Shown here piece by piece: positions 9,143-35,530 of a stretch of DNA of 56,189 nucleotides. The translations under genes were made by a program, and so were the position numbers. The stretch is from IMG/VR virus record IMGVR_UViG_3300027779_000014; one strand, 5' to 3'. The notes beneath the pieces were generated by a model that saw nothing but the letters and a program-made list of their open reading frames with translations, was not told the DNA's origin and did not search any database. Each line of letters begins with the position of its first letter. Position 1 is the first letter of the stretch. Source of the stretch: an uncultured virus (IMG/VR IMGVR_UViG_3300027779_000014) (lineage: Duplodnaviria > Heunggongvirae > Uroviricota > Caudoviricetes).

Positions 9143-10381
9143 TTAGGTTGTAAGCGGCTTCGTCATTTGAAGATTGCTTAAACACCCTAGTATGAGTTTC
9201 TTGTATAAATCAGAGTTATCTGTAAACATTTGTTCAGAATACCAGTAATGTCCGAAAGAGTATTCCTCTATCATCCATAAGTCATGGTCTACTACTTGTT
9301 TCCATGTGTCGATAACATGGACTACTTTTCCTGCTGCATCGTAACATGCATAATAGTAGTAGTAGGCACTACACACAGGAAATAGCCAGGATATCCAATC
9401 TAATTGGAAAAACCCAAGACGGTTCATGTGTTTATTTTCTAGTGTATCGTTTCGCATATTATTCGATATTTGAGTCGGCATAATTAGATCGTCAGACAAA
9501 TGGCCGTGGATCTCTATATATTGCTCAAACACCTCCTCCCAATCTTTCAAGTCATATCGATATTTTTCGATATCCTCACTGGGAAACAAATGATTTAGGT
9601 CGTCATCTTCAGGATTTAACCATCCGATTTCATTAATGTAACCTTCCCATTCCCATCCCTCATTGCATGATTGGTAATGTTCCGCGAATGCCTCTTGGAA
9701 TGAACTATGCCATCCCATTTCTTTTGCATCTCTTGTGGATGGATATTCTGGTGGTGAGTAATTTCCATCACCATAGAGCATGTCCTTTACAGATAGTTTT
9801 CTAATATCTAATTTATCGTGTTTGTCGCCAAGATATCTTGTATCTTGGTCGGTCCAATGAACCTTCAAGTATTCATTTCTATCTTCGAAATACCCTGGGG
9901 TCGCTTCGTGTCTTTTCATAAACAAACTAGAACTAGGATTTAACATCACTAACATATTCCATTCTCCTACATCTTTCCCCTCGTATAAATTGTGAGGGAC
10001 ATATTTGTGAAGGTTTATCGAGTATTTCCGTAATTTTTCAATTTCGCTCAAGTCTGTCTCGTTTATATCTCGCCAATCATATGGCGGACTTTCATTTTGA
10101 ATCATCCATTTTTCGCTTCTCTCATCGTCTCTGTTTAGGATTATGATCATCTCTAAATCTAACTCTGTTGCGAGTTCGTCTAAGATAGTTTCACATTCCT
10201 GGAATTCAGGAATTATTGTGTAATTTATAATATGTCTTTTCTGACATGAACTACCTAATCCTATTGATTTAGCATAGTCATCTTTTAACACTTTACTACA
10301 ATCTGTGCAGTATTTGAAGTGAGATCCTATTGCTTTTGAGAACGCTTCCATATGGAGATTCTTAAATTCTTTCATTAACAT
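9143..10381 (-). CDS. acidic protein with N-terminal DUF6011-like zinc finger
   Basis: CTDCSKVLKDDYAKSIGLGSSC. Confidence 0.7.
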   Translation of the reverse strand: MLMKEFKNLHMEAFSKAIGSHFKYCTDCSKVLKDDYAKSIGLGSSCQKRHIINYTIIPEFQECETILDELATELDLEMIIILNRDDERSEKWMIQNESPPYDWRDINETDLSEIEKLRKYSINLHKYVPHNLYEGKDVGEWNMLVMLNPSSSLFMKRHEATPGYFEDRNEYLKVHWTDQDTRYLGDKHDKLDIRKLSVKDMLYGDGNYSPPEYPSTRDAKEMGWHSSFQEAFAEHYQSCNEGWEWEGYINEIGWLNPEDDDLNHLFPSEDIEKYRYDLKDWEEVFEQYIEIHGHLSDDLIMPTQISNNMRNDTLENKHMNRLGFFQLDWISWLFPVCSAYYYYYACYDAAGKVVHVIDTWKQVVDHDLWMIEEYSFGHYWYSEQMFTDNSDLYKKLILGCLSNLQMTKPLTT

Positions 10382-10673
10382 GGTCAGTTACTTCAGGCCA
10401 ATACCTTGTCATAGGTAAGGCACAGTGTTTACAATATCCGTGTCCATCTGCCATTACTTCTTCTCTCCACTTCTTCGCTTGTGGTTTGAATTTGTCCCAG
10501 CAAGAACATCTTTTTACTGTACTTTGGTTCATCATTTCTTCCTCCTCCTCAACTCCAACAATTTTTTCATTAATGTCGGATTAGTATGTGTTTCCATAGC
10601 GAGCCATGGATTCAATTTGTTTGGAATTTTAATCTTCATTCTCTCCCTCCTGCTGATTTCCTTGGCGTTACCG

Positions 10674-16257: not shown

Positions 16258-17628
16258 CTACTCTTTCTCAACATTGTGAGAATTCATCTCTCTGAGTAAT
16301 GTATCAGTAATTAAGGGGATAGCTTTACTCCTACTACCCCAAAACATCTCGCCGCATTCTTCTATAAAAAGTTTGAAGGCTAATCCTTCATCAGTATGTT
16401 CTCCGTGGAGTTCATACGCCGCTTTATACGGGTTTTCAGAAGACAACTTATATCCTTGATTGAGAACACACATTCCGTAGACGGGATTAATCTCTCCTTC
16501 TACTCGTAGTGCTCCTTCTGCCTTCGCTTCGTAATAATCTTCAATACTGTGTCCTAAGAACCAATTTGGTTGATCTGCATAAGCAGCCCTCGTTACTTCA
16601 CTAAACATTTTAATGAATGTATCTGCTGCCCAATCCCCACCAACCTCATAGATTAGCAGGTATAAATTATGTCCCAATTGCCCTTGTAAAGAAGGGTCGC
16701 CGCTTAGGTTGGATATTGAATCATAAAAACTCTGATACATAGGGTTATCATACTCCCCATTTCTAAGTGTTTTTCCTTCGAAAGAACCCTGGAACATAAT
16801 TGTCCAGTCTGGTTCTTCAATAATTTGATGCGTTTTTGTTAAACAATCATCTGAAGTCCATTCGCTTTCGTCTAAGTCTGTATTCCATATTATTCCCCAT
16901 TTGGAGCCAAAATTTCTTAGGGCATCTAAATCAATCTCCTGAACTATCGGTTCATCTGCAATTAATTTTTGATAATAGGGTGGAGAATCTATCGGATAGT
17001 ATATTTCATCCGATTGGATATCTCTCTCGTCGGTTTCAAAATATCCTTTGCTGTGATGCACTAAGTCAAACTTTTCCAATAATAATAATATATCATTATC
17101 ATCAATACGCTCTGACTTTATTGCGACCACTTTCATTGAGAATTTTTTGAAACATGTGTTTCCAATGCCCCTTTCTCTTGAGGGAGCATCAGTTAATTCT
17201 TTATTACATAGTTTGCAGAACATTTGTTCTAGCTTCTCCGTAATAGGCAAATCATCTCCGTCCATGAAGTTTAAGCATTTACACGCTTCTTCCCATGTTT
17301 TATAGTTTTCACCCTCATTTCTGAATTGTGAAATTCCTGTTGCTTGGCAGGATACTTCATAGCACCCGCAGTTGCACATCTCTCCATCTTCAAGTAATTC
17401 ACATCCGCATATTTCCATTTCGTCACCTGATGGGTGTTCATAGAATTCTTCGCAGAAATACATCCCACATACGCCCTCACTATAGTCGTGAGGTATGTCG
17501 TGGTTGTGCTTTACTTTCAAAAGAGATCCACATTCGTCACATTCATTTATTGTTTCCACTTCTGGGAAACTATGTTCAGAGGATGGTTCTTTGCCATTTC
17601 TTTCTTGAATTGAATTGTTTTCATTCAT
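16258..17628 (-). CDS. Cys-rich protein with DUF6011-like finger
   Basis: CKLCNKELTDAPSRERGIGNTC; variant motif ACTGACCATAATG. Confidence 0.75.
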   Translation of the reverse strand: MNENNSIQERNGKEPSSEHSFPEVETINECDECGSLLKVKHNHDIPHDYSEGVCGMYFCEEFYEHPSGDEMEICGCELLEDGEMCNCGCYEVSCQATGISQFRNEGENYKTWEEACKCLNFMDGDDLPITEKLEQMFCKLCNKELTDAPSRERGIGNTCFKKFSMKVVAIKSERIDDNDILLLLEKFDLVHHSKGYFETDERDIQSDEIYYPIDSPPYYQKLIADEPIVQEIDLDALRNFGSKWGIIWNTDLDESEWTSDDCLTKTHQIIEEPDWTIMFQGSFEGKTLRNGEYDNPMYQSFYDSISNLSGDPSLQGQLGHNLYLLIYEVGGDWAADTFIKMFSEVTRAAYADQPNWFLGHSIEDYYEAKAEGALRVEGEINPVYGMCVLNQGYKLSSENPYKAAYELHGEHTDEGLAFKLFIEECGEMFWGSRSKAIPLITDTLLREMNSHNVEKE

Positions 17629-17640
17629 TATGGTCAGTGC

Positions 17641-18465
17641 CTATTCAAGTTTCTCGAACAGGGCTGAAATTTGTCTTATACCATTTGTATCGATTTCGCT
17701 ATGAAGCGACATCAACATAGTATCTAACAGATCTCTTTTGCTGGTAATTAGTTTCTTGTTGTGTAAATTAATCAGAACATTAGGGAGGCCAATTAAGCCT
17801 TCACTTGTTTCTGACATGGTTACCATTTCGAGATACCAAGTCCAGTTTAGTAATCCAGTACCAATTTGGTATGGTAGTAGTGAATCTGCAATTTCAAACA
17901 CCTCTGTAAGATCTGTTTCTTCCACTACGGGTTCTTCCACTACGGTTTCTTCCACTACGGTTTCTTCCACTACGAGTTCTTCCACTACGGTTTCTTCCAC
18001 TACGGTTTCTTCCACTACGGTTTCTTCCACTACGGGTTCTTCCACTACGGTTTCTTCCACTACGGTTTCTTCCACTACGGTTTCTTCCACTACGGTTTCT
18101 TCCACTAATGCTTTTTCATAAATCTTTAGGTTTTCACCCTCATTCTGTTGATTAAGTTCTTCAAGGGGAAAGATTTCTTTTGGGTTCCAATGAAATGAAT
18201 AGAGTTTTTCTATTCCATGCTCTTCCATAATATCGTTTTTTAGATGGTCCATAATTTCTCCCCATGCTTCCTTTATCTTTTCATCAAGTTTTTCAGGTTT
18301 AATTGTGCTACTTTGTGTAAGTAATTCCAATGTGCGATCTATGAGGCCCTTTTTTAGACCCTCTTCAATATCGCACCCATATTCTTCCAATGCGTGTAGC
18401 ATACGGAAGTACGGCCTTAATTCTTTTATCATTGCCAATTGCTTGGCATTGCGTTCTGTAGTCAT
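17641..18465 (-). CDS. acidic protein with (VVEET)n repeat
   Basis: Motif start; 13 pentapeptide repeats. Confidence 0.8.
   Translation of the reverse strand: MTTERNAKQLAMIKELRPYFRMLHALEEYGCDIEEGLKKGLIDRTLELLTQSSTIKPEKLDEKIKEAWGEIMDHLKNDIMEEHGIEKLYSFHWNPKEIFPLEELNQQNEGENLKIYEKALVEETVVEETVVEETVVEETVVEEPVVEETVVEETVVEETVVEELVVEETVVEETVVEEPVVEETDLTEVFEIADSLLPYQIGTGLLNWTWYLEMVTMSETSEGLIGLPNVLINLHNKKLITSKRDLLDTMLMSLHSEIDTNGIRQISALFEKLE
17915..18107. repeat. 15-bp coding tandem repeat, ~13 copies
   Basis: gtttcttccactacg unit. Confidence 0.95.
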
Positions 18466-23106: not shown

Positions 23107-24162
23107 TTACATCATAAGAGCATGAAATGTTCTTTGTGTGCTTGTAGTGCTTGTCGAACCGCATTGGTTTGGACAAGGCCCACAGTCTGTTACACAACCT
23201 ATTACATGTGCATCTGCTTCTGTAAGTGCGTCTTTATCGTTAAAGTATTTTGGACCACCATAGACCCACCCTGTTTTGAGTTTTGTATTGCCATCTTCAT
23301 CTTTTAAGCCGTACTTTTTGGCTTTGTAAGATTTTGGATGTATCAATATGTCTTTGTCTATGTGTTCCATTCTAGGATCACTCCTTCTCATTTGCCAAGG
23401 GGTTTCAATTATTCTAATTCCTTCTTTTATAGTTAGATTGTAGAAAGCGTCTTGACCATGCCATAGGATATCTCCCATACCTTCTTCGATTGGTTGGTTC
23501 TTTTTCCAGGGGAATGTACATAGCCGCATGAATATCGATTCTTGCGGAGTCATTTTTTTGTATCTCCTGATAATGTCTATAATCACTGGAACTCGGGAAT
23601 TCGGATCGAATTCTCTAGTCCAGTCATACCCTGCTATGACGCTCCAATGTAGGATTGCGCCAGAAAGTGCTAACCTCCCTAGTTGTGATGGACTAGGTGT
23701 ATGCCAAAACTTGGTGATAATCACCATTCTTGAACCAGCCATGCTGACTGTTTCTGCTGCTTTGACTGTTAGATCCCAGTCATATGAGGGATCTCCCATT
23801 ACTCCGTTTCTAACCCATTCCTTCGGAATATCTGTTGTGCTTTTACTACACCTTTCTAAGTGTTTTAGCACATCAGTTTGAAGTTTTACGGGTTCGAGTA
23901 TTTGAGATTGTGGACTGTCGAACTTAATGGCCTGGAATGTGACTCCCATGGAGGATTCGGCATAACAACCGAAACATCCACCTTTGCAGCCTTTTACTGT
24001 GTCCATTATATTCTTGTCTGTTTTATTATTCTCATATAGTCTAATCACTTTGTTAGGGAAAGGCGTTAGTACCGTTCCAGAACCATTTACTTTTTGTGAT
24101 GTCTGCTTTGGTAGAACGGGTAATTCCCATTCTACTTGCAGTTTCATATTTTTTAGTATCAT
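23107..24162 (-). CDS. radical-SAM-like / gp88-like Fe-S protein
   Basis: CKGGCFGCYA (CxxxCxxC), RNGVMGDP, C-terminal CxxxCxxCxxxC. Confidence 0.6.
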   Translation of the reverse strand: MILKNMKLQVEWELPVLPKQTSQKVNGSGTVLTPFPNKVIRLYENNKTDKNIMDTVKGCKGGCFGCYAESSMGVTFQAIKFDSPQSQILEPVKLQTDVLKHLERCSKSTTDIPKEWVRNGVMGDPSYDWDLTVKAAETVSMAGSRMVIITKFWHTPSPSQLGRLALSGAILHWSVIAGYDWTREFDPNSRVPVIIDIIRRYKKMTPQESIFMRLCTFPWKKNQPIEEGMGDILWHGQDAFYNLTIKEGIRIIETPWQMRRSDPRMEHIDKDILIHPKSYKAKKYGLKDEDGNTKLKTGWVYGGPKYFNDKDALTEADAHVIGCVTDCGPCPNQCGSTSTTSTQRTFHALMM

Positions 24163-28119: not shown

Positions 28120-28202
28120 GGTAAGTAGGCACATAGGTAGTGGTGTGCCTTCCACTGCCCCGAAGGGTCTTGCTTTTTGCCAATTAAGGCTAACGAATTT
28201 GA

Positions 28203-29249
28203 TTATTCGGCTTCCAGTACAAGGTAGTCAACATTTGACTTTTCTCTTACTTTCTGGGTCATATTCTTGGAGATTATCTCAGAAAGGTGTTGTTCCCCTT
28301 TCTTGAGCAATTCTGCTGCGGCTTCTTGATTTATTTTTATGTTGTTTGAGAGCCATTGCTTCTCCGATTTGTCCCAGTCACCTGGATTGCTTGATAAATC
28401 GTTTTTGCAAACATCTGATTCGATGCGTGGTTGCTGTTTTTTCCGATAAAATCTTGTTCTTCTTTGAGGAGGGGCGTGCGAAAGTGATCTTTTAACCCTA
28501 TTAGAATGTTTAACATTTCCTTCTAGGATTGATTCACAAAGTTCACACTTGCCTCTACGGGTGCCCATGATTTCAGAATTCCTTTTCCTGATGTGGCAAC
28601 CTTTCTCTTTAGTAACTTTTTTCAAATGCAGTTTTTCGTCATTCAAACGAGCCTTTGCTCTGCGTGTACGAGAAGATTCTAATTTCTTGGACCTTCTCTG
28701 CATAGCATCTACCCAATTATAGGGTACTTGCGGCGTTCTCGTAGAAGTAGCCATGGCTTCCGCTTTGGGCGGGGCTTCGGATTTGACAACCATCGTGGTT
28801 GCTGTGAATCGTACTGGCTTGAATCTTCCATCGAGTTTCCCTTGTTTATTTGTAGGGATCTCTTCGTTCCATTCTACTTTGCATTTTGCCAATTGTATAA
28901 CTTTTTCAGTCACATGACCGTCATTAGATGCGTCATAAAACAAATTCAATGCATAGTTAATTTTTTGTACTAACACATTCGGTGTCAGCATCTTAGCATT
29001 TTTATTCAGTATTACTACATCTTCTTCTTCGGTAGTGAGGTTATCCAAGTATGGCTTTATTATCGAAATCAATATTTTTAGGTAAGATGCTCTTCTTAGA
29101 GCACTTTTGCCTGCACCGGAATTACGCTTACTTATTTTCATAGCGCGTTTCCTTATGGCGGCTTCTCTTTCAGTTAGAGAAGAGATGCGGCCATTTTGGC
29201 TTGCAATTTCGTTCATTATTGGTTCATTATTCGTGCATTTATCTTGCAT
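28203..29249 (-). CDS. basic hypothetical protein (348 aa)
   Basis: Motif start; K/R-rich. Confidence 0.75.
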   Translation of the reverse strand: MQDKCTNNEPIMNEIASQNGRISSLTEREAAIRKRAMKISKRNSGAGKSALRRASYLKILISIIKPYLDNLTTEEEDVVILNKNAKMLTPNVLVQKINYALNLFYDASNDGHVTEKVIQLAKCKVEWNEEIPTNKQGKLDGRFKPVRFTATTMVVKSEAPPKAEAMATSTRTPQVPYNWVDAMQRRSKKLESSRTRRAKARLNDEKLHLKKVTKEKGCHIRKRNSEIMGTRRGKCELCESILEGNVKHSNRVKRSLSHAPPQRRTRFYRKKQQPRIESDVCKNDLSSNPGDWDKSEKQWLSNNIKINQEAAAELLKKGEQHLSEIISKNMTQKVREKSNVDYLVLEAE

Positions 29250-29684
29250 GGTCAGTTACGGGATTTGTTCACTCGCCACCTATCCCGTATCGGTGGGTCA
29301 TTGTGTCTAGTTGCCCCGAAGGGGCGTAAACCTCGTTCATTATTCACTTGGCCATTCTTTTTTCTAAAAACATTTTAAGTTCATTAGATGGTCCCCAACT
29401 TCCTAACACTTGACGAATAGTCAAGGGAAAGTTGTAACCTATGGCGGCTGATAAATCTAGATCCGTAATATTGTAGACTGTTGGTATTCCGGACATGGAA
29501 GCGAACTTGACTTTTATTTCGTCATTTTCCTTCCATGCAGTTCCGTAACCGGTCTTTATTATTAGTTTTCTTTCGTTCATTGGTTCATTATTCGTGCGTT
29601 TATCTTGCATGGTCAGTTACGGGATTTGTTCACTCGCCACCTATCCCGTATCGGTGGGTCATTGTGTCTAGTTGCCCCGAAGGG
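29207..29684. repeat. ~115-bp direct repeat (29207-29323 and 29571-29684) covering leader structure, motif and first codons
   Basis: Near-identical sequence; both genes begin MQDK.TNNEP. Confidence 0.95.
29344..29610 (-). CDS. hypothetical protein
   Basis: Motif-started ORF. Confidence 0.7.
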   Translation of the reverse strand: MQDKRTNNEPMNERKLIIKTGYGTAWKENDEIKVKFASMSGIPTVYNITDLDLSAAIGYNFPLTIRQVLGSWGPSNELKMFLEKRMAK

Positions 29685-29685
29685 C

Positions 29686-31419
29686 TCAACGCTGCTGTTT
29701 TCGAGCAGGCTTGCGTGTTGGTTTTTTGCTTTGCTTGGCTCGGTGATCGTAAGCATCCTTGGTTAGAGGCACTGCTTTTACTCCGATGACTGTTCTGCCA
29801 CCGATTGTCACCATTGCCGGAGTCAATTGAGACCTATTTCTCCCAATTTTTCCGTTTAAGCCGACTTTTTGCTCTCCTTTAGAACCATTGCTCTTTCCAG
29901 ATAGTTGGGCGTTCTCAAAGCCGAAAGGCCAGAATACGCTATTATCCTTTAATTGTTGCAATGCTTTTACAGTGGACTTATCCTTTTTATTTGCTTTATC
30001 GCCTATTTTTAGTAGGTAAGCGATGTTGGATAATACCCCAGTTGGCTCATAGCCGTGTTGGGCTGTCCTAGACTCAGAAGCTAAGATATTCATAATCGAA
30101 GCTGCTTTGCCTTGTCCTAAAACTTGTTGAAAGTAAAGTTCTGCCAACTTGGCTCCCTTCTTAATATCAGATACATCCCGTGGTTCAAGAGTTTTTCGTC
30201 CTCTCTTATCACAAGACTTTTCTGCTTTCGAACCTCTCATGAAGATTGAACTGTGAACTTCTATGCTATAACCTAGTTTTTGTAGAACTTTGGTTTTCAT
30301 TTCTAGCAGTTGAGACACAATTTCCCAATCAAGGAAGCGAGCGTTCTTGCTCGGATTTCGAGCGAGTTTCAGTGTACCCAAGTTCGGGTCATCTCGATCT
30401 ATTCCGTGATTGATTTGTAAATCTTTAAGGTTTCCAGTCTTAGGTAGTATGGTTTGTCCATACGGAGTTGCAAGTCTGATTAGGTTAAACCTACTCAGTG
30501 CGTTGACGCGATATACCAATATGTCTGCGTACTTTTGATTCTCTTGGCTCAGGTATTGATCCAAGTTAATGCCAAGTAATTCTTGTGCAGTTGGGTTTCT
30601 CTCAGTTATACGAGGTACGCCTTTGCCGACTTTGAACATACCAGGGGTATATTGTGGCGTTACATCATAAATAATCATAGACGCGAATTCTTTGTCGTCT
30701 GTTTCTGCGATGTAGCGCACACTTGTGCCCGCTGGTGCTAGTAACTGGAGGTCTTTTACTAATGAATCAGCATCATCTCGGCTGATTAATCCTGATGTTT
30801 TGGCTGTCTTGCCGTCATCAGATAGTAAATTGGACATCAAGGCATGAACGCTAGGATCTATTCCTATATTACCGAATGACATGGAACCTGACAATAAATT
30901 GCCAGCCACCATATTTCGGCCTTCTTGCGTTGTAGCTCCTTGTGTATCTGCTGCCTCTATAAGAGCGTGGGAAACCCACACTTCTTTATTAGGGACATTA
31001 AATGTTCCATTAGGACCTGTTTTCTCAGTTCTTTCATTTTCTTCTAGGTCTGCAAAGACTTGTTTCTTTGATTGTGCGTGCTCTTTCCCATACAATAAAA
31101 TCTCAACTTTAGAATCTCCTATAAAGAAAGTTCCGTCATTTTCTGATTTTGCATGTTCAAAAGATCTTACACACTCGATAAACTGGTCTGTTGCGTCGTT
31201 TTGCTTTGCGTTGTTTTTTATTTCTTGTGAAATAATTTTTAATGTATCTACGATAGGGCTTTTAGCATTCTTTGGCGTTGCATTTGCAATTTGCTCAAAT
31301 TGAGGCAATTTGCTAATAGCAGCCAAATCTGCTTTTAGACCCTTTAGGGTAAATTCAGTCATTATTTCATCTTTTGTCATATCAGCGTAGATTTCTACGC
31401 TTGCATTTTTCATGTGCAT
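29686..31419 (-). CDS. large hypothetical protein (577 aa)
   Basis: ACTTACC start; long ORF with no family I recognise. Confidence 0.85.
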   Translation of the reverse strand: MHMKNASVEIYADMTKDEIMTEFTLKGLKADLAAISKLPQFEQIANATPKNAKSPIVDTLKIISQEIKNNAKQNDATDQFIECVRSFEHAKSENDGTFFIGDSKVEILLYGKEHAQSKKQVFADLEENERTEKTGPNGTFNVPNKEVWVSHALIEAADTQGATTQEGRNMVAGNLLSGSMSFGNIGIDPSVHALMSNLLSDDGKTAKTSGLISRDDADSLVKDLQLLAPAGTSVRYIAETDDKEFASMIIYDVTPQYTPGMFKVGKGVPRITERNPTAQELLGINLDQYLSQENQKYADILVYRVNALSRFNLIRLATPYGQTILPKTGNLKDLQINHGIDRDDPNLGTLKLARNPSKNARFLDWEIVSQLLEMKTKVLQKLGYSIEVHSSIFMRGSKAEKSCDKRGRKTLEPRDVSDIKKGAKLAELYFQQVLGQGKAASIMNILASESRTAQHGYEPTGVLSNIAYLLKIGDKANKKDKSTVKALQQLKDNSVFWPFGFENAQLSGKSNGSKGEQKVGLNGKIGRNRSQLTPAMVTIGGRTVIGVKAVPLTKDAYDHRAKQSKKPTRKPARKQQR

Positions 31420-31439
31420 GGTAAGTATTTATGATAAGT

Positions 31440-31660
31440 AAGCAAGATTGTGGCATACTTGCTCTCTGCGGTGTCATTGAGAGTCCACCATCCTTTTGTC
31501 CTAAGTCGAGGGTTAGCACGACCAGACTTGGGATCCTTTGTTCGTCAAAGTTTTTTCTCGGCATGTTCGCTGAACCGCAGTAAAAATTGCTGCTTAGATG
31601 CTTCACCAAACCAATTATAGGTTCACCCTTTAATGGTCTGACTTATTCCACACAATATTT
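31440..31660 (-). ncRNA. putative structured ncRNA (~220 nt)
   Basis: Bounded by motif variants; stems agcaag/cttgct, tcctaagtc/gacttggga, ctgcgg/ccgcag. Confidence 0.45.
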
Positions 31661-31683
31661 TATGATAAGTATTTATGGTCAGT

Positions 31684-32100
31684 AGTTCCGTTGAGTAGTG
31701 GAAATTGAGCTTATCATTGACGCCGACCTTTTACAGTCGTCACTCAGTCATTTTCAATCTGCAGATTGTCCATGACTTGCCTTTGAATTTTTACGGCTCA
31801 TAGGTAGTAACCGGATTGATGATTTTTAGTCATCTATCCATTTCTACCCCTGTTGCTCTTTCGAGCATTTTGTGGCCTTTCGGCCTAATGGCATCATTTT
31901 ATCCTCTGGTAGAGGACTGGACTCAATTATCGGATTTCCATTCATCCGACCATTATTTATTGTTGTTGCTCTTTCGAGCGTTGCAAGGTTTCGCTTGCTC
32001 CGAACACCTCTGCAGGGTCGGTGTAGTTATGCTGTATCAACACTCCTCGAACTCTGATCGAGGACTTGTCACACACTCTTGGCTGTGTGAGCGTTTTTTA
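31684..32100 (-). ncRNA. putative structured ncRNA (~415 nt)
   Basis: Bounded by motifs; minus-strand GAAA tetraloop hairpins GCTC-GAAA-GAGC (x2) and GGCC-GAAA-GGCC; further stems. Confidence 0.6.
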
Positions 32101-32375
32101 CATGGTAAGTGCAGTTTGCGCGTACTGCTAGACGCATTATTTTTGGTGTTTGGCAATCTAAGTGTTGCCCATACTGTATATTTGCGTTTTAGTCCATATT
32201 ATCGCGGCCTAAATATACCGACCAAATAATAGTCTGCATATTGATGAATCCCTTTTTCTTTTCTTCTGGGTATTCAACCTCAATCATCTGCCTAATTTGC
32301 TTTCTGGAAAAATTTCGCATGGTAAGTGCAGTTTTGCGCGTACTGCTAGACGCATTATTTTTGGTGTTTGGCAAT
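32101..32375. repeat. ~57-bp direct repeat (32101-32157, 32318-32375) with pseudoknot and ACTTACC motif
   Basis: catggtaagtgcagttt(t)gcgcgtactgctagacgcattatttttggtgtttggcaat. Confidence 0.95.
32189..32320 (-). CDS. small hypothetical protein
   Basis: ACTTACC start at 32320. Confidence 0.55.
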   Translation of the reverse strand: MRNFSRKQIRQMIEVEYPEEKKKGFINMQTIIWSVYLGRDNMD

Positions 32376-32405
32376 TAGGGTTTGCCCAACCCATAAGATG
32401 CGGAT

Positions 32406-32510
32406 TTAGATTCTGCAATTCATTGTGCCGCACTCGCAGATTTTCCATTCTGGGTGCATTGGCAAATCATCATCGTATTCTATTCCGCATGAACATGTAT
32501 GTGTGTACAT
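32406..32510 (-). CDS. small zinc-ribbon protein (34 aa)
   Basis: ACTTACC start; CSCG...CECG. Confidence 0.6.
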   Translation of the reverse strand: MYTHTCSCGIEYDDDLPMHPEWKICECGTMNCRI

Positions 32511-32521
32511 GGTAAGTAAGT

Positions 32522-32848
32522 GTTCCAGGGCAAATTCTTTGGTCTGAAATGAGTGGGGGTCAGCACACTCATTCTCGTTGCCGATCATTACATCTCTGGA
32601 ACGGTAAGTGCCGCCACCTCCAATTAAGGAGGGCGTTAAGCCCGCATTCTCATCTGTCTGGTATAAGAGAGGAGTCCTAGGCGGATTCTGGCGACGGTAA
32701 GTGAGCCTTTTATAGATAATTACCGCGTTCTTGCTCAGGATTCCGCTTGGTAATCATAGACCTCTCATTTGACCGTAGAGAGGCTGGTGAAGGATCCACA
32801 CCCAATTCCCTCTTGCGTTATTAGGAGGGAGGTTTGGTAGATATGGAT
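32522..32848 (-). ncRNA. three motif-delimited small structured RNAs (32522-32602, 32610-32695, 32703-32848)
   Basis: Each begins right after ACTTACC with a paired 5' end (GTTCCAG/CTGGAAC; GTCGCCA/TGGCGGC; ATCCATATC/GGTGTGGAT). Confidence 0.55.
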
Positions 32849-33033
32849 GGTAAGTGCAGTTTGTGGTCATTTTCACTGCGAGACCAGGGTCAACACTGCT
32901 CTTAACTACCGAATTCATCGAGACGGCGCGTGTGCTTGTGTTGAAAATGGGATTTGGTCACTCGCCACCTTATCCCATATCAGGTGGGTCATAGTTCGTA
33001 ATTCAAGAATAAAGAGCTTGTATTTACTGCGGA

Positions 33034-33282
33034 TTAAGAAAACCTTCGATTCATTATTGCTTCTTGAATCAAATATTCTACATCTTTTTCGGCAGTCTTT
33101 AGTGCTTCGCGAGTATCTTTCAATTGTCTCAAGGCATTCCGAAATTTATTTTCGGAAATTTGGCCATTCATAAACAATCGCATTAACTGTTGCTCTAACT
33201 GCGGTTTATTCTTGTTGTTGGTCCTAACTTTACGGTGAGGTACAACCGACCCATCTCTGGGATTTGCCTGCTTATTTTGCAT
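33034..33282 (-). CDS. hypothetical coiled-coil protein
   Basis: ACTTACC motif 3 nt after tRNA CCA; start at 33282. Confidence 0.7.
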   Translation of the reverse strand: MQNKQANPRDGSVVPHRKVRTNNKNKPQLEQQLMRLFMNGQISENKFRNALRQLKDTREALKTAEKDVEYLIQEAIMNRRFS

Positions 33283-33292
33283 GGTAAGTATT

Positions 33293-33369
33293 TGGCGGGT
33301 CATACAGGGTTCGAACCTGTGGCCTTCCGGTTAAGAGCCGGACGCTCTACCTGACTAAGCTAATGACCC
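33293..33369 (-). tRNA. tRNA-Lys(CTT), CCA encoded
   Basis: GGGTCAT/ATGACCC acceptor stem, TCCGG-CTCTTAA-CCGGA anticodon arm, GGTTCGAACCC T arm, GCCA end. Confidence 0.95.
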
Positions 33370-33374
33370 GTTGT

Positions 33375-34098
33375 TCCCTCTACTGAGGGATAGTCGTATT
33401 ACCTTTTTTTAGAGTGGAAAGGTTCCACTTTGCTTTTTTTTATGTTAAGTACCGGCCTAAGCCGGTTATTTTTTCTAACATATCGCACATTTTTGGTTCA
33501 GCACCGTTATTGAACTTCCTCGAACCCACGCCACCCCGAAGGGTTTCCTAGCGTGAAATTCGCGCAAACATCCCTACCCTCGCCCTAAGCGTTAGGTGTA
33601 GTTCATAGCCCAATTTCTGTTCACCACCTTATCTCAAAGAGAAAGATGGTGTGTTGCATATCTAACGAGAGTAAGCGTCCACTGGAAATCCTGTTATTCA
33701 ACTTGAAGTCACCTTAAGGTAATCCTCTTGTTGCAGGGCCAATGTAGCCGTCAGTCTTTCGATTATTCTCTCCATACCGCTGCTGTTGTGTGATATTTCT
33801 GCATTAAGGTACATCTGCTCTATGATGTACCCCGTGTGACTTACTGTTTCCAGATATACGAGCCTCGGGAAAACTATCCTAAGGTGCATCTCGTATTAGG
33901 CTGGTTTGCTGCCAGCCCGTTTGTCATTTAACTTCTACAGGACAAGAAGACGCTAGTCTTCAAAGCATTTGTGGATCCTGTAGGTTTTCAGCCGGTAGAG
34001 TTTGCATCCCTGGTTTTCTCGACGCTTTGCAGGCATCGCTATTCAGGGAACTCCGTGAAGCCCCTTGAGGCAACCGGCTTGTGAGGATTGTCTCCTCA
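33375..34098 (-). ncRNA. putative large structured ncRNA (~700 nt) upstream of tRNA
   Basis: No credible ORF; dense inverted repeats (ggtacatc/gatgtacc, ctacagga/tcctgtag, agccggt/accggct, tacgag/ctcgta, gaagac/gtcttc, accggc/gccggt). Strand inferred from context. Confidence 0.5.
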
Positions 34099-34579
34099 TT
34101 ACATAGGCCACCGGCCCTCTAGGAGAGGGTCTGCGGCTAATATTTGGTAAGTTTTGGACCTGTTAAGGCCTCTTACATTATATAGGCCACCGGCTCTCTA
34201 GGAGAGAGACAGTTTATACTATACAATATGTATTCTAGTACCTATGCCACCGGCATTCATAAAGAAAGCCCTAAAGAGCAATTCTCAAGCTACTGCTTGG
34301 GATCACTCTGGGGTTTTTTGAGCCAGGAGCATCTGTTCCTAGGAACATTATCCTCTGGCAGATCTGTTCCTAGGAACATAATCTTAATGAGTTGGTGGTA
34401 TAAAGCACTTATTCTAGTACCTATGCCACCGGCATTCATAAAGAAAGCCCTAAAGAGCAATTCTCAAGCTACTGCTTGGATCACTCTGGGGTTTTTTGAG
34501 CCAGGAAGATCGTTCCTGGAACATAATTCTTAATGAGTTGGTGGTATAAAGCACTTATTCTAGTACCTATGCCACCGGC
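34097..34579. repeat. Repeat-rich divergent control region: 2x ~35-bp hairpin repeat and 179/146-bp tandem repeat with TGTTCCTAGGAACA palindromes
   Basis: Units at 34097 and 34177; tandem copies start 34231, 34410, 34556; palindromes 34334-34347 and 34365-34378. Confidence 0.9.
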
Positions 34580-34609
34580 TTTTATGATGGGAGCCCCTCT
34601 CCGCAACTC

Positions 34610-35530
34610 ATGAGCGACGCGCTGTCCCTAGGATCTCGGGCTTTCGAGGAATTGTTCTGCGAGTCAGGAGAACCTTCTGGATGTGCCAAGAAAGGAGGGC
34701 AGATAATTTATGAAAATGGGAAATCTGAATGCGCTTTCTGCGGATTAACGACTAAATTCGATTTCGATACATCTCCTACATTCAATAATGATAAAATGGA
34801 AAAGAGGTTCAGTTTAAGCGAAACAGGAGCTAAAAGAGGGAAGAAGCGAGCATTTAACAAATTGTTTGGCGATTCAACATATGTTGCGGCACATGAAGAT
34901 TTTTCAGGAGGCTACAAAGTCACTGACATTGGGCTTGTGAAGAAATTCAAATTGTCTGCTAACGCGGCTGCTGAAACTGAGAGAGTGTTTTATGAGATGC
35001 TGGAGAAGAATTACCAATTAGGAGGCAAGGGGTTGGATGCTGTAGTATATGCTGCTGCATTCCATGGATGTCAATTCGATTACAATTTCGTTCCAATAGA
35101 AAAGATAGTGAGAGACTCTAGTTCTATAAAGAAAGCAAATAGTCTAATCAAAAGAGCTAGGCAAGATGGCATCATTAAACTAGTGCAAAAAGATCCTGTT
35201 GCGATTTTAGAGTCGGCCCTATCAAAGCATGCATCGAGTAATTCTGTTCAAGAATTAGCAATTAAATTCGCAAAGATCTATATTCCTAACTTACGACCAG
35301 ATATTCACGCATCTGGAGCATTATACAAATCTATGAAAATTACGGGAAATAGTTCTGAAAAGAGAATTTCACAGGAAGAAATCGGAAAAAGATTCCATGT
35401 GAGTAGGAAACATGTGGGACAGGGGTATAGAGCAATTAACGAGGCTCTGACGCCTAAATCCAACCCTGGTCATTTGCCAAACATAGGTATTACTGGCGAA
35501 CAGTTGAAACTTTTGAGGGCTTTACGCTAA
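34610..35530 (+). CDS. tfb: TFIIB/TFB-like transcription initiation factor
   Basis: N-terminal Zn ribbon (C...CAFCG), cyclin-like repeats GKGLDAVVYAAAF and RPDIHASGALY, C-terminal ISQEEIGKRFHVS HTH. Confidence 0.75.
   Translation: MSDALSLGSRAFEELFCESGEPSGCAKKGGQIIYENGKSECAFCGLTTKFDFDTSPTFNNDKMEKRFSLSETGAKRGKKRAFNKLFGDSTYVAAHEDFSGGYKVTDIGLVKKFKLSANAAAETERVFYEMLEKNYQLGGKGLDAVVYAAAFHGCQFDYNFVPIEKIVRDSSSIKKANSLIKRARQDGIIKLVQKDPVAILESALSKHASSNSVQELAIKFAKIYIPNLRPDIHASGALYKSMKITGNSSEKRISQEEIGKRFHVSRKHVGQGYRAINEALTPKSNPGHLPNIGITGEQLKLLRALR

Follow-up and report, generated by a model that had tools for sequence, protein, structure and literature searches.

An uncultured virus encodes a structured non-coding RNA of about 650 nt (RNA-1), whose 3' ~315 nt very probably contain a circularly permuted catalytic core descended from RNase P RNA. 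Judging from sequence and covariation, the core comprises CR-IV, P2, P19, CR-V, P1, P3, CR-I and the P4 pseudoknot. RNA-1 is encoded on the minus strand of the 56,189-nt stretch of DNA analysed here (the window), between an intact tRNA-Lys gene and a divergent TFB-like gene (Table 1). The strand is assigned from motifs and folding, not from RNA contigs. Our results support the first-pass annotation, which had seen a large, structured and non-coding RNA next to a tRNA in this region. The spacer contains a conserved leader hairpin that stops 4-7 nt before the tRNA-Lys. The TFB-like gene beside RNA-1 is syntenic in both viral records. A single-sequence search with the TFB protein gave zero matches, and an alignment search returned just the two known viral records.

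Table 1. Coordinates of RNA-1, its structural elements and neighbouring features in the window.
Feature	Position	Strand	Remarks
RNA-2, probable non-coding RNA	31678-32110	-	Hairpin chain with repeated GAAA-type loops; starts at ACTTACC-ATG-TAA
tRNA-Lys(CTT)	33293-33369	-	CCA encoded; Rfam tRNA match
Spacer between RNA-1 and tRNA	33370-33483	-	Three hairpins; ACTTAAC at 33444-33450
RNA-1, structured non-coding RNA, ~650 nt	33484-34132	-	Bounds are metatranscriptome contig ends
CR-I and 5' strand of P4 (33509-33516)	33509-33521	-	P4 pairs without the bulged U
P3 hairpin	33521-33562	-	Shrunk to a short stem in L043
P2	33563-33658	-	33653-33658 with 33563-33569; encloses P19, CR-V and P1
P1, closed hairpin	33574-33601	-	Joins native 5' and 3' ends; 11 pairs, 3 with two-sided change
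CR-V and 3' strand of P4 (33607-33614)	33606-33621	-	
P19 hairpin	33622-33651	-	Variable length
CR-IV-like joiner AGAUAU	33658-33663	-	Invariant in 10/10; two bases shorter than cellular AG-4nt-AU
Long arm at P15 position	33667-33772	-	CR-III-like motif at 33677-33682
Helices X and Y, 5' strands	33778-33794	-	Pair with 33482-33506; P5/P7 position; close the core
5' domain, ~330 nt	33800-34132	-	No known counterpart; covarying
GAAA-tetraloop hairpin in four-way junction	33844-33853	-	GGAAAC in 10/10 aligned; covarying stem
ACTTACC motif	34146-34152	-	14-19 nt upstream of RNA-1 contig starts; also precedes short ORFs and RNA-2
TFB/TFIIB-like gene	34610-35530	+	Divergent from RNA-1; TFIIB match, E 8e-6

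Fifteen RNA runs from ten studies contain part of the window. We examined assembled contigs of four of these runs, which are seawater metatranscriptomes from four studies. Single contigs span 33484-34132 (X2), 33485-34127 (X3) and 33485-34051 (X1), and the fourth run (X5) covers 33485-34086 in pieces. All four share a contig end at 33484-33485, which is the end of the last long-range helix. Loose letters at both ends of the X1 contig resemble Illumina adapter. The contigs hint at a bounded RNA of ~650 nt, short of proof: RNA libraries can contain DNA, and lack of coverage over the tRNA and the flanks is not proof of absence. No circular joints occur in the contigs of the four runs, which are unable to exclude a circle. 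The RNA coverage by which the first-pass annotation proposed to check the region thus exists as bounded contigs from four studies, which give no strand, start or level. That annotation had placed the RNA at 33375-34098; the structured RNA is real, but the contigs begin further upstream (34127-34132) and end at 33484-33485. All nine stem pairs it named are present between 33441 and 34079, although two of them (tatgtta/taacata and accggc/gccggt, 33441-33482) belong to the spacer outside the covered RNA. The ACTTACC it described as lying just upstream is correctly placed for a minus-strand RNA.

The region folds well. Over 33375-34140, z is -8.2 on the minus and -6.1 on the plus strand, with 0 of 20 shuffles as good on either, and over 33484-34132 it is -4.4 (0 of 60). 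Folding that beats shuffles had been proposed as a check and is found, but six control stretches of the window fold at z -0.4 to -6.0, and because of this overlap we dropped folding energy as proof. RNA-1 is singled out instead by covariation and by RNA contigs confined to the region. Coding controls on the minus strand fold below their shuffles at 17000-17650 (z -6.0), 23200-23850 (z -4.0) and 10000-10650 (z -3.7; 12 shuffles each).

Just two ORFs of at least 40 aa lie inside the region, of 45 aa (+) and 63 aa (-). Across the span of the latter, the start codon is absent in seven of nine aligned homologues, the other two have an early stop, and differences in length shift the frame. A protein-coding region is rejected, as the reading frame is not conserved among the nine, and the earlier description of the region as ORF-free holds in the sense that a conserved reading frame is absent.

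GOLLD, ROOL and OLE are large ornate RNAs found beside tRNA in viruses, and their families are part of Rfam. The first-pass annotation had raised the first two without assigning RNA-1 to either. Rfam matched tRNA alone in the whole window, the region, each of its halves and five homologous loci. GOLLD, ROOL and OLE gave no match at the gathering threshold or at E up to 10 in the window and up to 3 in the five loci, which speaks against these families; unlike them, RNA-1 has an archaeal carrier and an RNase P core. Nothing matched RNase P or group I/II introns either. The RNase P result is empty because the catalytic core is in rotated order. An intron is rejected: the RNA lies between intact tRNA and TFB genes, and the contigs have no joints. 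The suggestion of a new class stands insofar as RNA-1 is outside all Rfam families, but about half of it is recognisably an RNase P catalytic core, rotated.

Helix names in RNA-1 are assigned by position. On the minus strand the two core motifs appear in reversed order, with ACAGAA-3nt-GGGCUA (CR-V) ~85 nt ahead of GAGGAAGUUC (CR-I). CR-V precedes CR-I in 13 of 13 records, and the normal CR-I-to-CR-V order with free ends at P1 is absent from them. From 5' to 3' the core runs through the 5' strands of helices Y and X, the long arm, AGAUAU, a P2 strand, P19, and CR-V with its P4 strand, and continues through the P1 hairpin, the second P2 strand, the P3 hairpin, CR-I with its P4 strand and the partners of X and Y. 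P4 crosses P2, forming a pseudoknot. Set against cellular RNase P RNAs, the connectivity is the same as in their catalytic domain, except that the native ends are fused at P1 and new ends open beyond the P5/P7 position. Helix X (7 pairs) is 100% paired, with two-sided change at 2 pairs; helix Y (8 pairs) is 92% paired with zero two-sided changes, and P2 (6 pairs) is 100% paired with one-sided changes only. The internal loop CCUAA of P1 is invariant among the aligned sequences.

We collected 13 RNA-1 records, which fall into five clades with cores 56-85% identical; independent lineages are these five clades only, and one record (L024) is identical to the window and not independent. A search for the reversed CR-V/CR-I pattern returned 16 viral loci, of which one was a true homologue, and 20 metagenome loci, of which 11 were (nhmmer E below 1e-70); a tRNA pattern search added L043. 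Chance loci discarded in the four pattern scans numbered 15 of 16, 1 of 2, 2 of 3 and 9 of 20. As most homologues were selected by this pattern, their motif content is partly circular evidence, from which the window and L043 are exempt.

The tRNA-Lys follows RNA-1 in nine of the 13 records, and a tenth record is cut inside the tRNA. In the clade of L028, L029 and L038, RNA-1 is kept and a short ORF replaces the tRNA-Lys. The tRNA adjacency noted earlier is thus real in the window but not obligatory, an ORF standing there in 3 of 13 related records. No RNA-1 homologue was found beside 33 cellular tRNA-Lys loci, in fragment G001, or in 150 genomes of the likely host's class (a search without positive control). 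In L007 (2740-2800) a tandem repeat of 5-/10-nt units lies right behind the tRNA, and L040 is likewise.

The core structure was evaluated on eight sequences. Of 685 cells, 96.4% are paired, against 36-42% when the structure is slid along the alignment, and no shuffle of 500 matches the values for pairing and covariation, a test that relatedness of the sequences inflates. The covariation proposed as a check in the first-pass annotation is present, with both sides changing in 26 of 86 pairs of this manual structure and in 89 of 165 RNAalifold pairs. P1, P2, P3 and P19 are paired in 92-100% of cells, and P1, P3 and P19 contain two-sided changes. P4, anchored on invariant motifs and gap-free, forms all 8 of its pairs in four clades and 7 of the 8 in the fifth; it covaries at its four variable pairs across the five clades. 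Two-sided change is absent from P2 and the inner five P4 pairs in the eight sequences. A model built from eight sequences without L043 detects L043 at 157 bits; this record retains 57 of 67 pairs and shows 21 two-sided changes.

The bases that are at least 95% conserved in the cellular RNase P RNA set were compared with the viral sequences. CR-I positions 1-6 and 9 and CR-V positions 1-4, 6, 7, 12, 15 and 16 are identical in 8/8, while core identity between clades is 56-85%. Exceptions are CR-I position 11, which differs in 6/8 (C in 40/40 cellular RNAs), CR-V position 9, which differs in 3/8, and single changes in L043, including one CR-V base.

Weight matrices were derived from cellular RNase P RNAs alone (40 CR-I and 43 CR-V sequences). 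They rank the RNA-1 site first in the 56-kb window at 20.3 bits, with the next site at 9.8 and 0 of 3000 shuffles equal. In 1.19 Mb of other DNA, from which homologues and 41 pattern-selected loci were excluded, the best chance match with P4 pairing scores 14.0 bits; three matches score higher, all of them built on a genuine cellular CR-V. The matrices miss L043 and, without the P4 filter, give 18.7 bits to an unrelated site in G068, the record that contains it. The sole RF00373 match in G067 covers CR-IV/P19/CR-V, at E 0.034 and 9.7 bits against a gathering threshold of 84. Sequence HMMs of cellular RNase P RNA gave at best 2.4 bits on viral sequences and 2.4-6.4 bits on the best shuffles, and the viral RNA-1 model found 0 of 13 cellular RNase P loci.

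Major departures from cellular RNase P RNA can be observed. The bulged U of P4 binds a catalytic metal. It is absent in RNA-1: the viral P4 forms 7-8 of 8 pairs unbulged and 4-6 of 8 bulged, whereas 40 cellular RNase P RNAs average 7.95 pairs with the bulge and 7.1 without. The conserved U itself is retained but stands opposite an extra G, which results in two U-G pairs. The CR-IV-like joiner is at its expected place before the 3' strand of P2 but is two bases short. A P7-P9 junction connecting CR-I and CR-III is missing from the RNA-1 structure, and no canonical specificity domain (P7-P12, CR-II, CR-III via P5/P7) is recognisable in RNA-1. In five of eight sequences the top CR-III site is the CR-III-like motif in the arm that occupies the P15 position. 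The arm is weakly similar to the P12/CR-III part of the S domain, best in L031 (3 of 500 shuffles) and not significantly in most, and may possibly be a P10/11-P12-derived module. RNA-1 is below the Rfam gathering threshold for RF00373 and is not a member of that family, because order, bulge and S domain fail.

The 5' domain consists of a branched long helix (33990-34079), a helix (33935-33983), a four-way junction (33838-33925) and a hairpin (33808-33831). Over alignment columns 1-378, 42 of 76 predicted pairs show two-sided change, and covariation is as strong as in the core. The GAAA hairpin is a possible docking partner of the CCUAA loop of P1. We infer this from known tetraloop-receptor and L9-P1 contacts, the latter described for RNase P RNA (PMC3579882).

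The carrier of RNA-1 is related to a larger record. L043 belongs to the complete relative G068, whose 128,784 bp carry direct terminal repeats and include dozens of genes shared with the window. It contains tail-fibre-like genes as well as archaeal-type PCNA, thermosome, TFB and RNA polymerase A''-like and H-like genes, and may represent an undescribed group of archaeal viruses. Capsid, terminase and DNA polymerase were not recognised among its 134 proteins in a comparison with Pfam. One 839-aa protein has an RNA polymerase A''-like N-terminal part, encoded alongside a subunit H-like protein, TFB and thermosome; the gene loci are L114:9544-12060, L117:3241-3534, L116:16184-17077 and L112:8245-9627.

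The tRNA-Lys differs at 7 of 77 positions from its nearest cellular copies (the nearest 13 of 33), which are mostly from Poseidoniales/Thalassarchaeaceae records, so the host is likely a member of the marine group II archaea. A normal RNase P RNA is present in 59 of 61 genomes of this order, and Rpp29 and Rpp21 in all three genomes tested, while Pop5 (PF01900) and Rpp30 (PF01876) were found in 0 of 61. The RNase P of marine group II archaea may be either reduced or very diverged; Pop5 and Rpp30 may be too diverged for detection, which PMC4919917 says of Thermoplasma. G067 and G068 yielded no RNase P protein, in a Pfam comparison of the 134 G068 proteins and in four family searches.

We give even chances to RNA-1 being a permuted viral endonuclease of RNase P type that acts on the 5' leaders of pre-tRNAs. 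Descended from an archaeal RNase P RNA, virus-encoded and circularly permuted, it would be transcribed from near ACTTACC and trimmed back to helix Y, and the permuted chain would fold into the RNase P active site. It would cleave RNA in a Mg-dependent manner at pre-tRNA 5' leaders, the precursor of the adjacent tRNA-Lys being one likely substrate. The 5' domain may brace the core by its GAAA loop on the CCUAA loop of P1, replacing S-domain contacts or proteins. We keep a chemical role because the active-site bases are invariant while the helices drift and compensate; the missing bulge and S domain lead us to predict lower activity, but not none. Self-cleavage by a tethered M. jannaschii catalytic domain is just 12-fold slower without the S domain (PMC2475606), and losing or replacing the conserved U lowers activity ~13-20-fold (PMC3488217). 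Type T RNase P RNAs do without most of the S domain (PMC3579882). Against an RNase P-type role, the host already has a normal RNase P RNA, and the virus has no obvious need for another.

Possible, if unlikely, is a re-targeting as in RNase MRP, where the core would cut substrates other than pre-tRNA, selected by the 5' domain. Targets could be a viral multi-gene precursor (RNA-2, tRNA and short mRNAs near ACUUACCA) or host RNAs. The unrecognisable S domain and altered P4 would fit such a change, as would the retention of RNA-1 in three records without an adjacent tRNA and the ACTTACC ahead of RNA-1, RNA-2 and several ORFs, often with ACCA as at a tRNA 3' end. However, no guide covaries, as GUAAG-like stretches vary without matching changes in ACTTACC, and of the 20 minus-strand copies of this motif 6 stand immediately ahead of an ATG, which a start signal fits equally. 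The longest perfect complement between RNA-1 and RNA-2 is 9 nt. Guide pairing of RNA-1 to ACTTACC and pairing between RNA-1 and RNA-2 are both unsupported. A virus-rebuilt RNase P, in which an RNA domain would replace Pop5/Rpp30, seemingly missing from the host, and which would process the viral tRNA/RNA-2/short-mRNA precursor, possibly in cis, is unlikely in our judgement.

We doubt somewhat more that RNA-1 is a mimic with little or no catalytic activity, which would bind tRNAs or the RNase P proteins of the host and so dampen or redirect host tRNA maturation. The absent bulged U, the short CR-IV and the lack of a recognisable viral RNase P protein would agree with this, and the virus encodes proteins resembling the RNA polymerase subunits, TFB, PCNA and thermosome of the host. 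Camelpox virus provides a precedent, with an RNA that resembles RNase P RNA but is inactive (PMC3001073). The invariance of the active-site bases amid drifting helices speaks against a mimic, and a decoy is less attractive because Pop5 and Rpp30, the binders of the catalytic domain, were not found in 61 genomes of the likely host order, where they are maybe too diverged.

It is very unlikely that RNA-1 is a natural enzyme-substrate conjugate. RNA-1 would then be co-transcribed with the tRNA and release it in cis, and the permutation would put the free 3' end where the pre-tRNA can enter the active site. The tRNA does lie on the RNA-1 strand 109-152 nt past CR-I in 10 of 13 records, the leader hairpin is conserved, and engineered tethered RNase P conjugates are active (PMC2475606). 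Yet the tRNA is absent from 3 of 13 records, none of the contigs of the four RNA runs bridges RNA-1 and the tRNA, the spacer ACTTAAC may give the tRNA its own start, and the engineered tethers have 3-5 nt at L15 compared with ~100 nt beyond P5/P7 here. That RNA-1 is an unrelated structured RNA with a coincidental likeness to RNase P is barely credible: HMM and Rfam matches are not significant and over half of the RNA lacks an equivalent in RNase P, but two long conserved motifs pair as a covarying pseudoknot with the correct flanking helices and connectivity.

RNase P RNA is among the few universal ribozymes, and the order of its parts and the bulged U are treated as fixed. RNA-1 shares CR-I, CR-V, a CR-IV-like joiner, P1, P2, P3, P19 and the P4 pseudoknot across P2 with the archaeal types A and M (RF00373). 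It differs from them in being viral, rotated and ~650 instead of ~300 nt long with an extra ~330-nt 5' domain, in its loop-closed P1, and in having neither a bulged U nor a P7-P9 junction to connect CR-I with CR-III. Among 27 RNase P RNAs of one order in the likely host's phylum, 5 share its CR-I/CR-V variant (GAGGAAGUUC with GGGCUA), and the CR-V 16-mer of L031 is identical to that of this order. The likely host's own variant is GAGGAAAGUCC in 32 of 32, unlike RNA-1.

Type T of the Thermoproteaceae likewise keeps the catalytic domain, has largely lost the S domain and is missed by the standard Rfam model; it is short and cellular, with normal order and a 3-bp P2 (PMC3579882), whereas RNA-1 is ~650 nt, permuted and viral with a 6-pair P2. 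The camelpox virus RNA is also a viral RNA resembling RNase P RNA. It is described in PMC3001073 as having 'some secondary structure similarity', ~98% identity among orthopoxviruses and no activity; RNA-1, by contrast, is permuted, and its core motifs and helices covary across 56-85% identity. Domains rearranged around new ends are also found in a rearranged large ribozyme of another class, and the tethered RNase P conjugates were engineered in the laboratory, with their opening at L15.

We could not find the permuted form described, and it is apparently new: the literature searched, which excluded subscription journals, yielded neither a naturally permuted RNase P RNA nor one from an archaeal virus. 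The term 'RNase P' occurs 0 times in the available parts of PMC11706807 and PMC10690425, and tables of candidate RNAs such as that of PMC10690425 could contain parts of RNA-1 unnamed. As a natural permuted viral RNase P RNA is invisible to Rfam, such RNAs may be systematically overlooked. RNA-1 would provide a natural test of which core features are needed for catalysis and, if the proposed role is true, a new route by which an archaeal virus could gain control of tRNA maturation. Because it can be produced in vitro, direct assays need no culture of either virus or host.

A second probable non-coding RNA, RNA-2, is encoded on the same strand. A block at ~31678-32144 is covered in all four RNA runs; RNA-2 folds at z -7.6, with no Rfam match above threshold. 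Homologues with a conserved core are found in L028, L029, L043, L007, L022 and L040. X3 and X5 contain a diverged 64-nt piece of RNA-2 (window 31889-31954) with unrelated flanks, which is either a further relative or a mobile hairpin module.

The ACTTACC motif occurs 14 times against 4.3 expected, in the stretch 28120-34152 on the minus strand and often directly before the ATG of short ORFs; its counterparts in G068 are ACTAACC/ACTCACC. It may mark start sites or serve as a signal for translation or processing. Between RNA-1 and the TFB gene, direct repeats at 34097-34625 comprise five 31-nt units and three 90-nt units with palindromes, a possible promoter, operator or origin region. The first repeat unit falls within the RNA-1 contigs, and similar upstream repeats are present in homologues.
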